Shown: one piece after another, positions 59,180 through 64,000 of the stretch | Layout: each line of letters starts with the position of its first letter | Numbering within the stretch: position 1 is the first letter of the stretch | DNA from: Escherichia coli | GTDB taxonomy: Bacteria > Pseudomonadota > Gammaproteobacteria > Enterobacterales > Enterobacteriaceae | Strand: one strand, 5' to 3' | DNA: 64,000 bases | NCBI RefSeq assembly: GCF_050320075.1 | Contig: NZ_CP190018.1 | The notes under the pieces: model-generated | What the model was told of the DNA's origin: nothing | The model's database searches: none | What the model saw: the letters and a program-made list of their open reading frames with translations, nothing else | Made by a program: the position numbers and the translations under genes

Positions 59180-60358
59180 TTAAGCTTGTACTTTTATCTG
59201 TGCTGCGGCGTGCTTTGCGCGCTCAATCGCTTCATCAACACTCTCAGCGGTCGCCAGCGCAACACCCAGACGACGGCTGCCATCAATTTCCGGCTTACCA
59301 AATAAACGAATCTGTAGGCCTGCGCCTACGGCATTCTGCACATTATCAAACGTGACATTCTCACTGGTCAGTTGTGGCAGGATAACGGCAGAAGCTGCAG
59401 GACCATACTGACGGATCCCGCCAACCGGAAGTCCGAGAAAGGCTCGCACATGCAGGGCAAACTCCGAGAGATCCTGAGAAATTAACGTCACCATCCCGGT
59501 ATCATGTGGGCGAGGGGAGACCTCACTGAAAATCACCTCATCACCACAGACAAACAGCTCGACACCAAACAGCCCATAACCGCCCAGTGCCAGCACCACT
59601 TTACGGGCAATTTCTTGCGCACGTTCCAAAGCCAGCTGGCTCATTTGCTGTGGTTGCCAGGATTCACGATAGTCGCCATCTTCCTGGCGATGACCTACCG
59701 GTGCACAGAAATGGACGCCATCCACCGCGCTGACGGTTAGCAGGGTAATTTCGAAATCAAACTTGACGACGCCTTCAACAATTACGCGGCCCGCTCCGGC
59801 GCGACCGCCTTGCTGAGCGTACTCCCATGCATGAGCAAGTTGCTCTGCAGAACGAATAAACGTCTGCCCCTTGCCGGAGGAACTCATCACCGGTTTAACA
59901 ATGCAGGGATAGCCGATTTCAGCAACCGCCTTGCGGAAAAGGTTTTCGTTATCGGCAAAACGATAAGTGGAAGTGGGCAGCTGCAGCTCTTCTGCCGCCA
60001 GGCGACGGATACCCTCGCGATTCATCGTTAATTTCGTTGCGCGCGCGCAGGGGACAACATTCAGTCCTTCCTCTTCAAGTTGGATCAGCATATCGGTGGC
60101 AATAGCTTCGATCTCCGGCACGATATAATGTGGTTTTTCCAGTTCAACCACACGGCGTAATGCATCACCATCAAGCATATTAATGACATGGGAGCGATGC
60201 GCGACATGCATAGCTGGCGCGTCGGCATAGCGATCGACGGCAATCACCTCTACGCCGAGACGCTGACACTCGATTGCCACTTCTTTACCCAGTTCACCGG
60301 AGCCTAATAACATCACGCGAGTTGCTGCCGGACGCAGCGCAGTGCCTAATAACGTCAT
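59180..60358 (-). CDS. purT: Formate-dependent phosphoribosylglycinamide formyltransferase PurT
   Basis: 392 aa [27 protein letters not shown]...; ATP-grasp. Confidence 0.95.
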
Positions 60359-60456
60359 AACGAATATCCCCTGATTAATTCCGCGCGCAGTATAAACGAA
60401 AACGTTTGCGCGTGTCTTTATTGCTGATATTGATTTTCCAACCGAAAAGAAATATA

Positions 60457-60472
60457 CTGTATAAAATCACAG
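60457..60472. promoter_or_regulatory. LexA (SOS) box upstream of yebG: CTG-N10-CAG
   Basis: TACTGTATAAAATCACAGTT ~20 bp upstream of yebG start; yebG is an SOS gene. Confidence 0.8.
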
Positions 60473-60491
60473 TTATTATGAGAGGCTGCAA

Positions 60492-60782
60492 ATGGCGGTT
60501 GAAGTTAAATACGTAGTCATTCGTGAGGGCGAAGAGAAAATGTCGTTTACCAGCAAAAAGGAAGCCGATGCTTATGACAAAATGCTTGATACGGCGGATC
60601 TGCTTGACACCTGGCTGACAAATTCTCCAGTGCAAATGGAAGACGAGCAACGTGAAGCCCTTTCGCTATGGCTGGCAGAACAAAAAGATGTGCTGAGCAC
60701 CATTCTGAAAACCGGCAAATTACCGTCCCCACAGGTCGTCGGTGCTGAATCCGAAGAGGAAGATGCCTCACACGCGGCCTGA
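60492..60782 (+). CDS. yebG: SOS-induced protein YebG
   Basis: 96 aa MAVEVKYVVIREGEEKMSFTSKKEADAYDKML... Confidence 0.9.
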   Translation: MAVEVKYVVIREGEEKMSFTSKKEADAYDKMLDTADLLDTWLTNSPVQMEDEQREALSLWLAEQKDVLSTILKTGKLPSPQVVGAESEEEDASHAA

Positions 60783-60800
60783 AGCAACTTGCGCTCCTGA

Positions 60801-61205
<405 letters not shown>

Positions 61206-61531
61206 TGGCTTCTGATAATTCGATTGACCGTTGGCGGATGCGGCGCGAGTGCCTTATCCGCCCCACAACGCACCACAATCGTAGGCCTGAGAAGACGCAA
61301 CAGCGTCGCATCGGGCAATCAGCATCAAACAGTGCTACTCAAAACGTCAAACTACTTTCACCTAAAATACCCTTATCATCTGATATACAGTGAACACCTT
61401 ACCTGGCGGGAATTTCTTTGAATAACGGCCAACCGCCCCGCTTATTTGCGCATCTTTTGTCTCGATATACATTTTCTGACATCCTCATCCGCTATGCTAC
61501 AGGCACTAAAAATGGTTATTGAGGAGCAAAT

Positions 61532-62191
61532 ATGGCTAACTGGTTAAATCAACTGCAATCCCTGCTTGGGCAAAGCAGTTCTTCTGCCTCCTCGTCTGCG
61601 GATCAGGGATTGGGCAAACTTTTAGTGCCGGGCGCATTAGGCGGACTGGCTGGGCTGCTGGTCGCAAATAAATCAGCACGTAAACTTCTTACGAAATATG
61701 GCACCAACGCGTTGCTGGTTGGCGGCGGAGCGGTAGCGGGTACGGTGCTGTGGAATAAATACAAAGATAAAATTCGCGCGGCGCATCAGGACGAACCGCA
61801 GTTTGGCGCGCAAAGTACGCCGCTGGATGAGCGTACTGAACGTTTGATCCTTGCGCTGGTCTTTGCCGCTAAAAGTGATGGTCATATTGATGCCAAAGAA
61901 CGTGCGGCAATCGATCAGCAATTGCGTGAAGCCGGCGTGGAAGAGCAGGGGCGTGTACTCATTGAGCAGGCAATCGAACAACCGCTGGATCCACAACGCC
62001 TGGCTACCGGGGTCCGCAATGAAGAAGAGGCGCTGGAAATCTATTTCCTGAGCTGCGCGGCTATTGATATTGACCATTTTATGGAACGCAGTTACCTGAA
62101 TGCACTGGGTGACGCGCTGAAAATCCCCCAGGACGTTCGTGAAGGCATTGAACGCGATCTCGAACAACAAAAACGCACTTTGGCGGAATAA
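61532..62191 (+). CDS. yebE: Inner membrane protein YebE (DUF533)
   Basis: 219 aa [28 protein letters not shown]... Confidence 0.9.
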
Positions 62192-62199
62192 TTCCGCTC

Positions 62200-62238
62200 T
62201 CTGGATAGCCTGAAGTTGACTATTTCGGGCTATCCAGA
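62200..62238. repeat. Subterminal imperfect-palindrome hairpin of the IS end (TCTGGATAGCC-N17-GGCTATCCAGA)
   Basis: 11-bp perfect stem, no flanking U-tract on either strand, so an IS-end structure fits better than a terminator. Confidence 0.5.
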
Positions 62239-62354
62239 ACCGCACAGCCATTTGAGCAGGCTGATTTTCTCTGTCTGCATAACATTCGATATCCGCGCCA
62301 TTACCTGTCATCATGTGACTGCTCCCCGCCCTGTCGGGCGAGGCTTCCCACTTC

Positions 62355-63524
62355 TTAAGCCGCAACCGTCTGTGTGACGGATTTACGCTGGCCTCCATGG
62401 GCAGAAACGACGAGTCCCGCCGCTTGTAATTCCAGTATGCCCTTGCGTTTGATGTTGAGCGCCGCGTTGATATCGCGGTCATGTTCAACTCCACACTCTG
62501 GACACTGCCAGATGCGCTTATGTAATGGCATCTCCGACATTTTGTGACCGCAGCAGTGGCAGGTCTTCGAACTGGCGAACCATTGATCCAGTTTCACCAG
62601 ATGCACACCTTTCTCTGTTGCTTTGTATTCCAGTTTTGTGATGAATCCAGACCATCCAGCATCGCCTATCGCACGAGCCAGATGGTGATTTTTCATCATA
62701 TTTGCCATTTTCAATGTCTCGACAATTACCGCTTGGTTTTCGTCAACAATTGCGCGAGATAACTTGTGCTGGAAATCGGCACGGGCACCGGCTACCCGTT
62801 CGTGAACGGCTGCAAGTTGTATTCTGGCTTTGCGCCTGTTTGCGCTCCCTTTTTTCTTACGGGACAGTGCTTTCTGCTTCCGGCGCAGGTTGCGACTTGC
62901 ATTGATTAGGTGGCGGGGACTGGCAATTTTATTGCCGTCCGATTTGATGACAAAATGCGCCAGCCCCATATCCAGCCCTGTCACATTTGATATCAGTGCG
63001 GGCTTTGCCGGCGCTTCCATCCCGTCGTCACAGAGTAACGACGCGTAGTATTTCCCGGTTGCGCTGCGGCTCAACGTGATACTTTTCAGCATTCCCGTAA
63101 TTTCACGATGTAAACGCGCTTCAATCGGCAAGATTTTCGGTATTTTTATCGCAGCATCAAGGACTTTTATGCCAACACAATGGTAGCTCGATTGTCTGCC
63201 GTGTTTACTTTTAAAGGTAGGTTTACCTGCTTTCAGTTTCGGATTGAAAAAGTTAGAAAAAGCCACGTCGAGGTTAATTACCGCCTGCTGCAACGCAATA
63301 GAATCATATTCTTTAAGCCATCCATACCGGCGGGATTTCTTCGCCACTGCAAGCAGTGGTTTGAGGTCTTTACGCGGGTTTAAATTTACGCGGTGCCGCT
63401 GGTAAGAATGTTTCTTGATATGCAGAGCTTTGTTGTACGCAAAACGCACTGCACCGAACTGGGCGTTGATAAATTCAGCCTGTTCTGGTGTCGGGTAGAT
63501 GCGTACTTTTGTTGCTCTTAACAT
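62355..63524 (-). CDS. tnpB: TnpB (IS200/IS605 OrfB; RuvC-like RNA-guided nuclease family)
   Basis: 389 aa; N-terminal MLRATKVRIYPTPEQAEF..., RuvC-like motifs and C-terminal zinc finger CHCCGH...CPECG. Confidence 0.85.
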   Translation of the reverse strand: MLRATKVRIYPTPEQAEFINAQFGAVRFAYNKALHIKKHSYQRHRVNLNPRKDLKPLLAVAKKSRRYGWLKEYDSIALQQAVINLDVAFSNFFNPKLKAGKPTFKSKHGRQSSYHCVGIKVLDAAIKIPKILPIEARLHREITGMLKSITLSRSATGKYYASLLCDDGMEAPAKPALISNVTGLDMGLAHFVIKSDGNKIASPRHLINASRNLRRKQKALSRKKKGSANRRKARIQLAAVHERVAGARADFQHKLSRAIVDENQAVIVETLKMANMMKNHHLARAIGDAGWSGFITKLEYKATEKGVHLVKLDQWFASSKTCHCCGHKMSEMPLHKRIWQCPECGVEHDRDINAALNIKRKGILELQAAGLVVSAHGGQRKSVTQTVAA

Positions 63525-63640
63525 AATCAGCGCTCATTGATATAATGCTTTTATTTTAACACTTTAGGTAAATATATCAATTGAGTAATCATGATGATTT
63601 ACTGGCGGGATTTCTCCGCAAACGACACAGTGTCAGTAAG

Positions 63641-64000
63641 CTGGTTGTGCACCTTATTTTTACGACAAAGTATCGACGCAAACTATTCGACAGTCAGATG
63701 ATCGCTCAGTTGCGTGAGGCTTTTGGCTCCGCTGCGGCAAAGCTTGAATGCGAAATTATTGAGATGGACGGGGAGCCAGACCATGTACACCTGCTGGTTG
63801 CCTACCCGCCAAAACTGGCGGTCAGTGTGATGGTCAATAATTTAAAATCGGTATCATCACGTTTGCTACGCCAGCAGAACGCGCATTTACGCATGCAGAG
63901 TAAAACGGGGCTTTTGTGGTCGAGATCGTACTTTGTCTGTAGCACCGGAGAGGCAACGATTGAAACGCTCAGAGCCTACGTTCAGAGTCAGTCAACACCT
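63641..64000 (+). CDS. tnpA: IS200-type Y1 transposase TnpA, partial (3' end beyond window; start codon unclear)
   Basis: Frame translates to ...LVVHLIFTTKYRRKLF...DHVHLLVAYPP...WSRSYF... (HUH motif and catalytic Tyr); no in-frame ATG between the upstream stop at 63569 and the HUH domain. Confidence 0.7.
   Translation, partial: MVVHLIFTTKYRRKLFDSQMIAQLREAFGSAAAKLECEIIEMDGEPDHVHLLVAYPPKLAVSVMVNNLKSVSSRLLRQQNAHLRMQSKTGLLWSRSYFVCSTGEATIETLRAYVQSQSTP

Follow-up and report, generated by a model that had tools for sequence, protein, structure and literature searches.

Closest described systems

The mechanisms of TnpA and TnpB are already established in two elements, ISDra2 from Deinococcus radiodurans and IS608 from Helicobacter pylori. 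Solved structures are available for both proteins of ISDra2, TnpB (PDB 8exa, 8h1j, 8bf8) and TnpA (2xm3); its RNA scaffold is 116 nt long, with four stems and a pseudoknot that pairs positions -5 to -3 with -103 to -105 (PMC10097598). A further study describes the TnpBs of the IS605 family as homing endonucleases, which cleave vacant sites (PMC10690162). IS608 (PDB 2vhg, 2a6o) represents the mechanistic model for TnpA. Each of its ends has a subterminal hairpin, the two lying on the same strand, and it inserts 3' of a tetranucleotide with no duplication of the target. This tetranucleotide is TTAC, and the distance between hairpin and cleavage site is larger at the left end than at the right.

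The element described here is located between yebE and ptrB in the window, i.e. the whole stretch of 64,000 nucleotides of Escherichia coli DNA that was analysed, which cuts one of its ends. From position 62315 onwards it is, very probably, an intact copy of the catalogued ISEc46, with a TTG-started TnpA, TnpB, an omega-RNA and a TTAG target. ISEc46 is itself already known: the listed papers that name it are all unrelated to its mechanism, being mostly genome surveys, and the literature searched gave nothing on its expression or activity, nor was a study of ISEc46 found in the literature on TnpB with TTAG. What is gained here is a corrected and complete annotation, which comprises the exact ends, the TTAG target (the predicted TAM), the TTG start, and a model of the omega-RNA and its guide at base resolution.

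ISEc46 resembles ISDra2 closely. The TnpB proteins are homologous over their full length (E = 4e-73) and have the D-E-D triad and the zinc finger in common; the scaffold, of about 111-116 nt, likewise covers the 3' end of tnpB and the right end, it contains equivalents of stems 1, 2, 3a/3b and 4 that agree with the ISDra2 scaffold almost position for position, and its candidate pseudoknot is found at the same place. ISDra2 TnpA is also a Y1/HUH homologue of the ISEc46 enzyme; the target, however, is TTAG in ISEc46 and TTGAT in ISDra2. With IS608, ISEc46 shares a homologous TnpA (E = 5e-19), the same-strand subterminal hairpins, the insertion 3' of a tetranucleotide without duplication and a similar asymmetry of the cleavage sites, whereas the target (TTAG instead of TTAC) and the sequences of the end hairpins are different.

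Identity, ends and target of the element

Positions 62100-64000 of the window have 100% nucleotide identity to many RefSeq E. coli chromosomes, in which the insertion occupies the same yebE|ptrB position. On this identical DNA, RefSeq gives the tnpA product the name "IS200/IS605-like element ISEc46 family transposase" and lists next to it an "RNA-guided endonuclease InsQ/TnpB family protein"; the identity as ISEc46 is this RefSeq/PGAP name, as distinct from an alignment to the ISfinder reference, and no difference was found between the window copy and the RefSeq-annotated ISEc46. The first-pass annotation, which had proposed an IS200/IS605 element whose tnpA and tnpB are divergent, is borne out in this respect. 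The coordinates of all features are collected in Table 1.

Table 1. Features of ISEc46 and of its host flank, in window coordinates.
Feature	Position	Strand	Description
ISEc46	62315-64077 (window part 62315..64000)	top strand = window minus	1763 bp; vacant/occupied comparison and RefSeq name
tnpA	63581..64000 (stop 64004-64006 outside window)	+	141-aa Y1/HUH transposase; WP_000064873.1, TTG start
Promoter-like site for tnpA	63518..63546	+	TTAACA-17-TATAAT; 11/12 plus TG extension; consensus match only
tnpB	62355..63524	-	389-aa RNA-guided endonuclease by ISDra2 TnpB homology and NF040570
Promoter-like site for tnpB	63553..63580	-	TTGATA-16-TAAAAT; 10/12 plus TG extension; consensus match only
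Right-end subterminal hairpin	62324..62343	-	CCTCGCCC-GACA-GGGCGGGG; conserved, covaries across the family
Omega-RNA scaffold	62315..62430	-	about 111-116 nt; RNAalifold and pair counts, 51 relatives
Omega-RNA stem 1	62425-62419 with 62411-62405	-	
Omega-RNA stem 2	62401-62397 with 62351-62347	-	
Omega-RNA stem 3a	62393-62387 with 62363-62358	-	
Omega-RNA stem 3b	62380-62376 with 62370-62366	-	
Omega-RNA stem 4	62343-62336 with 62331-62324	-	same as the right-end DNA hairpin
Omega-RNA candidate pseudoknot	62416-62413 with 62320-62317	-	
Predicted 16-nt omega-RNA guide	62299..62314	-	5'-ATGATGACAGGTAATG-3'; lies in host DNA, next to the right end
Host hairpin downstream of the yebE stop	62200..62238	+	outside ISEc46; same sequence in IS-free K-12 MG1655

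The ends are established directly from the vacant site of K-12, which sets both junctions unambiguously (...catcat|GTGACTGC... and ...GTTTTTCG|ctaagc); the left end lies past the end of the window, and the right boundary, which had been placed at about 62195 at first pass, is at 62315. The comparison of the vacant with the occupied site also shows that the insertion caused no duplication of the target, and that, on its top strand, the element directly follows TTAG. A second E. coli insertion, within an IclR-family gene, has identical ends and the same CTTAG flank, and TTAG precedes every left end found across Gammaproteobacteria by a search based on the hairpin only, with no flank motif imposed. 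A regex tally of the flanks, which required TTAG and is circular for this motif, was used only for the preceding base, which is T in 18/33 flanks. At the other end, the terminus ...GCAGTCAC is conserved, with the guide region immediately 3' of it; it closes with AGTCAC in nearly all the relatives and with AGTTAC or AGTCAT in two, and the relatives' flanks diverge straight after it.

The left-end subterminal hairpin, CCCTCGCCC-AATGC-GGGCGGGG, is located just beyond the window (L001 4941-4962); it is near-identical to the right-end one and on the same strand, and both hairpins are conserved in the relatives. The cleavage site is 16 nt from the hairpin at the left end versus 9 nt at the right end. 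The right-end hairpin is the predicted binding site of TnpA as single-stranded DNA, and it is predicted to double as stem 4 of the omega-RNA. A repeat search found neither terminal inverted repeats nor target duplications, as expected for IS200/IS605; the element combines a Y1/HUH TnpA, same-strand subterminal hairpins with no terminal inverted repeats and insertion 3' of TTAG without duplication, which are the features of this family.

The transposase, its start codon and the host hairpin

TnpA matches the Pfam Y1_Tnp profile from position 1 to 121 of 121 in a single frame (E = 5e-39) and scores 141.8 bits against NF033573 (cutoff 55), which bears out the divergent Y1/HUH frame that had been noticed earlier. 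H68-V-H70 forms the HUH motif and Y133 is the catalytic tyrosine, and both are intact; the TnpA structures solved for IS608 and ISDra2 are homologous to the protein and align from residue 15. The TTG at 63581 is also the start annotated by RefSeq for this protein. The first ATG in frame is codon 40 (63698), so an ATG start is impossible, as it would fall inside the catalytic domain; the absence of a usable in-frame ATG had been correctly pointed out at first pass. In 24 relatives tnpA is matched over its full length, one of these matches being a decayed remnant, and the codon equivalent to the TTG is TTG in 7, GTG in 14, ATG in 1 and GTT in 1. Downstream of it, the N-terminal peptide MS.H..LL.G(F/Y)LRKRHSVSKLVVHL is conserved in the relatives, and at the protein level the conservation of residues 2-24 extends to Photorhabdus, Serratia, Rahnella, Idiomarina, Vibrio and others. 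Judging from this sequence conservation, tnpA starts at TTG 63581 and is not frameshifted, and the gene should not be labelled a pseudogene. The terminator scan did not identify the hairpin found after tnpA as a canonical intrinsic terminator.

Two features of the sequence lend themselves to a different reading, one for the start of tnpA and one for the right end of the element. The first-pass annotation had left open a non-ATG start or a frameshift: the former stands, with the TTG, while the latter is contradicted by the open frame and by the conserved N-terminus. A frameshifted pseudogene, translated from the ATG at 63591 and then shifting into the HUH frame, could be envisaged since this ATG, rightly described as being off the tnpA frame, comes only 10 nt after the start of the gene, whereas codon 40 is the first ATG of the tnpA frame. 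However, the ATG falls within the codons CAT GAT GAT, the ORF in its frame has only 36 codons, and the tnpA frame is open from the TTG to the stop, encoding what RefSeq reports as an intact 141-aa protein, with the Y1_Tnp profile spanned in one frame. The start codons of the relatives and the N-terminal peptide conserved across genera refute the frameshift, which is thus scarcely credible. Similarly, the hairpin at 62200-62238 had been taken as the subterminal hairpin of an IS abutting the yebE stop. It is indeed a very stable stem-loop, as had been perceived (as RNA, dG -29.1 kcal/mol and z = -6.95, with 0/200 shuffles folding as well), and it is on the tnpB 3' side; but IS-free K-12 has the hairpin, together with the 76 nt that follow it, in essentially unchanged form, hence this is host DNA, lying 77 nt outside ISEc46. 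Moreover, the family-wide right-end terminus ...AGTCAC is at 62315, away from the hairpin, which also lacks the motif of the real end hairpins, CC(C)TCGCCC-loop-GGGCGGGG. The chance that it forms the IS end is practically nil, being refuted by the K-12 sequence. It has no T-run and was not flagged by the terminator scan, and it is not called a terminator here.

TnpB and the omega-RNA

The minus-strand ORF, which had been assigned to a 389-aa TnpB at first pass, contains the Pfam domains OrfB_IS605, Cas12f1-like_TNB and HTH_OrfB, and it reaches 341 bits with the NCBIfam model NF040570 (cutoff 100). Residues 4-380 match the ISDra2 TnpB structures 8exa and 8h1j with the E value given above; the RuvC triad D185/E269/D351 aligns with D191, E278 and D361 of ISDra2, and C331, C334, C351 and C354 of ISDra2 are the aligned counterparts of its zinc-finger cysteines C322, C325, C341 and C344. 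A domesticated, nuclease-dead TnpB was considered and is excluded by the intact RuvC triad and by its location in a complete IS.

The omega-RNA had been expected across the 3' end of tnpB and the right end of the IS, and a covarying scaffold is indeed found there; the proposed span of 62200-62450 was too wide, as 62200-62298 is host DNA. In 51 relatives, analysed by RNAalifold and pair counts, compensatory changes occur in 17/30 pairs and six helices are supported. The proportion of paired cells is 97.5%, while no slid control exceeds 53.5%; for covariation the score is 0.437 versus at most 0.129, and 0/500 shuffles attain the observed score. All the stems are intact in the window copy, and the many G-U pairs agree with the tnpB-sense strand. 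In the candidate pseudoknot, GACU (-102 to -99) can pair with AGUC (-6 to -3) in 96.5% of cells; these columns are near-invariant and show no covariation. Stem 4 is also, by prediction, the DNA hairpin bound by TnpA, so its covariation cannot separate constraints on the RNA from those on the DNA.

When 60000-64000 was compared with Rfam at E <= 1, no omega-RNA family was identified, and no family at all on 62299-62430; the only matches in the region were sub-threshold naRNA4/REP-like ones and a chance mir-4662 (E = 0.94) on the host hairpin. The ISEc46 RNA represents an omega-RNA family that is supported by covariation and has no Rfam model.

The length of the predicted guide, 16 nt, was taken from ISDra2 (PMC10097598). 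In silico, the top strand of the vacant K-12 site reads TTAG|ATGATGACAGGTAATG, i.e. the predicted guide sequence comes directly after TTAG, and TTAG is the TAM predicted from the insertion target.

Proposed mechanism and possible homing

From what is established for ISDra2 and for IS605-family elements, a possible cycle can be outlined. TnpA, a Y1/HUH single-strand transposase translated from the TTG start, would bind both subterminal hairpins and move the top strand by excision and insertion, with no target duplication. TnpB would act as an RNA-guided RuvC nuclease, whose scaffold would come from the final ~70 nt of tnpB, stop codon included, together with the 40-nt right end; transcription, if the RNA is expressed as in ISDra2, would run on into the host flank and produce the guide (62314-62299). 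After excision, the rejoined site would consist of TTAG and of the sequence matching the guide, and it would be cut by TnpB, with TTAG as the TAM; ISEc46 would then be regained by recombination with a sister copy that carries the IS.

We suggest, tentatively and as something short of an even chance, that in E. coli ISEc46 may function as a natural TnpB homing system, with a yebE-side guide and cleavage of the vacant TTAG|ATGATGACAGGTAATG allele. If so, homing would explain how a single-copy element with a weak TTG/GTG start of tnpA has lasted at one site across diverged lineages, and ISEc46 could convert vacant alleles after DNA transfer. Its TnpB, being native to E. coli, could also be a handy system for studies of TnpB homing in this species.

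Distribution and mobility

A full copy of ISEc46 is present in 455/5426 complete E. coli genomes, with one copy per genome in most carriers, while the vacant site is found in 5025 of the same 5426 (~93%). Seven of the eight full-length chromosomal copies retrieved sit at yebE|ptrB, and only two E. coli insertion sites were seen among the sampled loci. Transposition is therefore rare at best, since the element is single-copy and confined to these two sites among the E. coli loci sampled. The copies differ by at most 13 nt, and in every one sampled both ORFs remain open, free of stops and frameshifts. The flanks diverge by ~1-1.5% between copies and the IS by 0.4-0.7%, which is suggestive, and not decisive, as to vertical descent versus repeated homing.

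These same data might indicate that the copy is an immobile relic, vertically inherited at one site, with a tnpA and a tnpB that no longer work as transposon or homing system. The single copy in most carriers and its presence in a minority of genomes would agree with such a fate, as would the recurrence at yebE|ptrB and the weak start codon of tnpA, and the differences among copies, of up to 13 nt, fit a long vertical descent. Nevertheless, a relic appears unlikely: both ORFs are open in all the sampled copies, the catalytic motifs are intact and so are the two ends, as well as the omega-RNA stems in the window copy, and a second E. coli site is known. Furthermore, an ISEc46 fragment, 99% identical, is found at a different, third site in Kluyvera, which points to mobility on a recent timescale.

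Identity and Location of the Element

The last genes of the window follow the E. coli order purT-yebG-yebF-yebE, and downstream of them lies an already-known, catalogued IS with textbook IS200/IS605 anatomy. Indeed, NCBIfam NF040570 (TnpB family) scores 341 bits against the 389-aa ORF (cutoff 100) and NF033573 (IS200/IS605 transposase) 141.8 bits against tnpA (cutoff 55); many RefSeq E. coli chromosomes are 100% identical to window 62100-64000, and the genes, located between yebE and ptrB, are named there "RNA-guided endonuclease InsQ/TnpB family protein" and "tnpA: IS200/IS605-like element ISEc46 family transposase". Together with the Pfam domains, these names and matches bear out the element type proposed by the first-pass annotation; the present analysis adds a precise annotation, comprising ends, TTAG target, TTG start, omega-RNA model and predicted guide. 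A full ISEc46 copy was found in 455 of 5426 complete E. coli genomes, while the yebE-ptrB site is without insertion in 5025 of them. The matches listed in a literature search on ISEc46 were mostly genome surveys, and none dealt with its mechanism.

Features of the ISEc46 region, in window coordinates
Feature	Position	Strand	Basis or sequence
yebE	61532-62191	+	DUF533/TerB-family protein
tnpB, 389-aa ORF downstream of yebE	62355-63524	-	Pfam OrfB_IS605, Cas12f1-like TNB, HTH_OrfB, E = 1e-19 to 1e-25
tnpA, Y1-transposase frame, runs off window	start 63581	+	Pfam Y1_Tnp, E = 5e-39
Promoter-like site for tnpA	63518-63546	+	TTAACA-17-TATAAT, consensus match only
Promoter-like site for tnpB	63580-63553	-	TTGATA-16-TAAAAT, consensus match only
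Stem 1	5' arm 62425-62419, 3' arm 62411-62405	-	RNAalifold
Stem 2	5' arm 62401-62397, 3' arm 62351-62347	-	RNAalifold
Stem 3a	5' arm 62393-62387, 3' arm 62363-62358	-	RNAalifold
Stem 3b	5' arm 62380-62376, 3' arm 62370-62366	-	RNAalifold
Stem 4	5' arm 62343-62336, 3' arm 62331-62324	-	RNAalifold
Right-end subterminal hairpin	62343-62324	-	CCTCGCCC-GACA-GGGCGGGG
Left-end subterminal hairpin	other ISEc46 end	-	CCCTCGCCC-AATGC-GGGCGGGG

Ends and Target Site

The boundaries were set by comparing the occupied yebE-ptrB locus (L001) with the IS-free locus of K-12 MG1655. Host DNA is unchanged up to window 62314 (...cattacctgtcatcat); the insert starts at 62315 (GTGACTGCTCC...) and stops at L001 4978, corresponding to window 64077 (...GGCGTTTTTCG), beyond which host DNA is found again from ctaagcaatgac. 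The element measures 1763 bp, both junctions are unambiguous, and no target duplication emerged from this comparison. A repeat search found no terminal inverted repeats, and the subterminal hairpins of both ends share one strand. On the top strand, defined as the tnpB sense strand, 5'-CTTAG precedes the left end and the right end closes ...GCAGTCAC. At a second E. coli site, within a gene of the IclR family, an independent insertion shares both ends and the left-end CTTAG, but its right-end flank is unrelated.

A TnpB protein scan of 100,044 species genomes provided 80 related loci (63-99% amino-acid identity) from Photorhabdus, Serratia, Rahnella, Idiomarina, Vreelandella, Vibrio, Shewanella and others. 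Their right-end terminus is AGTCAC nearly throughout (two have AGTTAC or AGTCAT), and directly past it the flanks differ; a hairpin search with no flanking motif imposed gave the junction TTAG-C(A/G)AA at all left-end hairpins found. Since TTAG is present at all left ends so found and the base 5' of it is variable (T in 18 of 33 flanks), the target is TTAG; ends and target are standard IS200/IS605 anatomy. In one Idiomarina loihiensis copy (L087, positions 926 and 969) the left-end hairpin is tandemly duplicated.

The first-pass annotation had placed the IS boundary directly past yebE, with the hairpin 62200-62238 as the subterminal IS hairpin. This hairpin and the following 76 nt are also present in IS-free K-12, where the hairpin is identical, an observation that the annotation itself had named as counting against its proposal; this places it in host DNA, 77 nt away from ISEc46, and the same comparison moves the first IS base to 62315. 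The hairpin is unusually stable (-29.1 kcal/mol, z = -6.95, 0/200 shuffles as stable; 17 pairs counting G-U) and unannotated in the K-12 record; it has no T-run, and a terminator scan does not call it an intrinsic terminator. Between yebF and yebE (61187-61335), sub-threshold matches to Rfam naRNA4 (32.5 and 28.3 bits, gathering score 59.5) look like REP/BIME-type palindromic repeats.

Transposase and TnpB

The tnpA frame is open since the stop at 63569-63571 and contains TTG at 63581, the RefSeq start of a 141-aa protein (WP_000064873.1); no ATG occurs in frame before codon 40 (63698), which lies beyond the catalytic domain's first beta-strand (VVHLIFTTKYRR). Among the loci retrieved by tblastn, 24 with a full-length match plus one decayed remnant, the equivalent start is GTG in 14, TTG in seven (the E. 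coli-type copy in contig L014, Photorhabdus, Serratia plymuthica) and ATG in one (Pantoea); one Alteromonas tnpA has GTT there and ATG eight codons upstream. There is conservation at the protein level in the N-terminal peptide S-(N/V)-H-x-x-L-L-x-G-(F/Y)-L-R-K-R-H-S-V-S-K-L-V-V-H-L. The tail ahead of residue 15, where the alignment to solved TnpA structures begins, has an ordinary length, and the protein has both the HUH motif (H68-V-H70) and Y133. The open frame, the conserved start position and peptide and the catalytic residues indicate that tnpA is intact with a non-ATG start, as the annotation had suspected; on these sequence comparisons, a weak non-ATG start is a family trait. The frameshift that it had offered as an alternative is refuted by the open frame and conserved peptide, the ATG at 63591 being merely part of CAT-GAT-GAT (His-Asp-Asp) when read in the tnpA frame.

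The tnpA/tnpB spacer is 56 bp long and, on a consensus scan, its promoter-like sites are divergent. Past the tnpA stop, outside the window, is a hairpin, AAAGCCC-TGC-GGGCTTTT (L001 4912-4930, window 64011-64029), which the terminator scan did not call. Only 85 nt separate the left end from the start codon of ptrB downstream (L001 4978-5064), and tnpA points towards ptrB, so the insertion may alter ptrB expression.

TnpB residues 4-380 align with ISDra2 TnpB (PDB 8exa, 8h1j, 8bf8; E = 4e-73): the catalytic D191, E278 and D361 of the latter correspond to D185, E269 and D351, and its zinc-finger cysteines to C322, C325, C341 and C344. The ISEc46 copies sampled in E. coli are 0-13 nt apart, and none has a disrupted ORF.

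The Omega-RNA and Its Predicted Guide

The final 200 nt before the right-end terminus were aligned for 51 non-identical family members. RNAalifold predicted six helices over the final ~111 nt of this alignment, with compensatory double changes in 17 of 35 predicted pairs, and a single-sequence fold gave the same helices. The 30 core pairs show standard pairing in 97.5% of cells (slid partners 32.6-53.5%) and double changes in 17 (slid partners 5-6); the covariation score is 0.437, with slid controls at <=0.129 and 0/500 shuffles as high. G-U pairs are frequent, which fits an RNA in the tnpB sense. Stem 4 doubles as the DNA hairpin for TnpA, and covariation there may reflect either RNA or DNA constraint; stems 1-3, within tnpB's coding sequence at its 3' end, provide the RNA-specific evidence.

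In the cryo-EM structure of the ISDra2 omega-RNA (PMC10097598), the scaffold is 116 nt long and contains four stems plus a pseudoknot (-5..-3 with -103..-105); a 16-nt guide comes after the scaffold. The ISEc46 layout agrees with this structure almost position for position, and this likeness, with the covarying stems, upholds the omega-RNA proposed earlier at the tnpB 3' end, for which Rfam gave no match. In a candidate pseudoknot, AGUC (-6..-3) can pair with GACU of the stem-1 loop (-102..-99) in 96.5% of cells; these columns barely vary, so covariation speaks neither for nor against it.

If ISEc46 behaves like ISDra2 and other members of the IS605 family, its transcript would run on past the right end and take up ~16 nt of flank as guide, predicted for the window copy as 5'-ATGATGACAGGTAATG (62314-62299, minus strand). 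The top strand of the vacant K-12 site reads TTAG followed by ATGATGACAGGTAATG; this would make the vacant site, and not the occupied one, TAM plus target for the copy's own ribonucleoprotein. PMC10690162 describes a homing/retention logic for IS605-family TnpB, and ISEc46 would fit it, with expression, cleavage and TAM as predictions.

Mobility and Related Copies

Most carriers have a single ISEc46 copy, the sampled loci show just two E. coli insertion sites, and copies diverge by up to 0.7%, as might be expected of a mere relic; however, all ORFs and ends are intact, as are the catalytic motifs and the RNA stems, and further sites exist, the second in E. coli and a third in Kluyvera, which makes a relic quite improbable. 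The Kluyvera cryocrescens copy (L069, NZ_BCTM01000057.1, 1501-2317) is a 5'-truncated tnpB (residues 132-389), 99% identical to ISEc46, with an intact right end and a different flank; a third site in another genus points to recent horizontal movement. Between carrier strains, divergence is ~1-1.5% in the flanks and 0.4-0.7% in the IS, values that do not tell vertical descent and homing apart.

In many Photorhabdus copies (L021, L023, L025, L028, L030, L057) tnpB and the right end, with the omega-RNA region, are intact, and of tnpA there are fragments or nothing; tnpB seems to persist in these copies after tnpA is lost. E. coli plasmids (matches H65-H73, e.g., L012 1541-2710; H78-H80; H83-H90) carry solo tnpB of ~79% nucleotide identity without tnpA, tnpB fragments beside a shufflon recombinase, and 38-bp right-end-only remnants (e.g., L013 1501-1538) equal to window 62315-62352, for instance between hokD and an IS3 element. 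Contig L014 (JAIJJM010000608.1, 1960 bp in all), filed as "MAG: Collinsella sp.", consists of ISEc46 and the E. coli yebE-side flank ATGATGACAGGTAATGGCGCGG; judging from this sequence, an Actinobacteria MAG appears to have picked up E. coli DNA through mis-binning.
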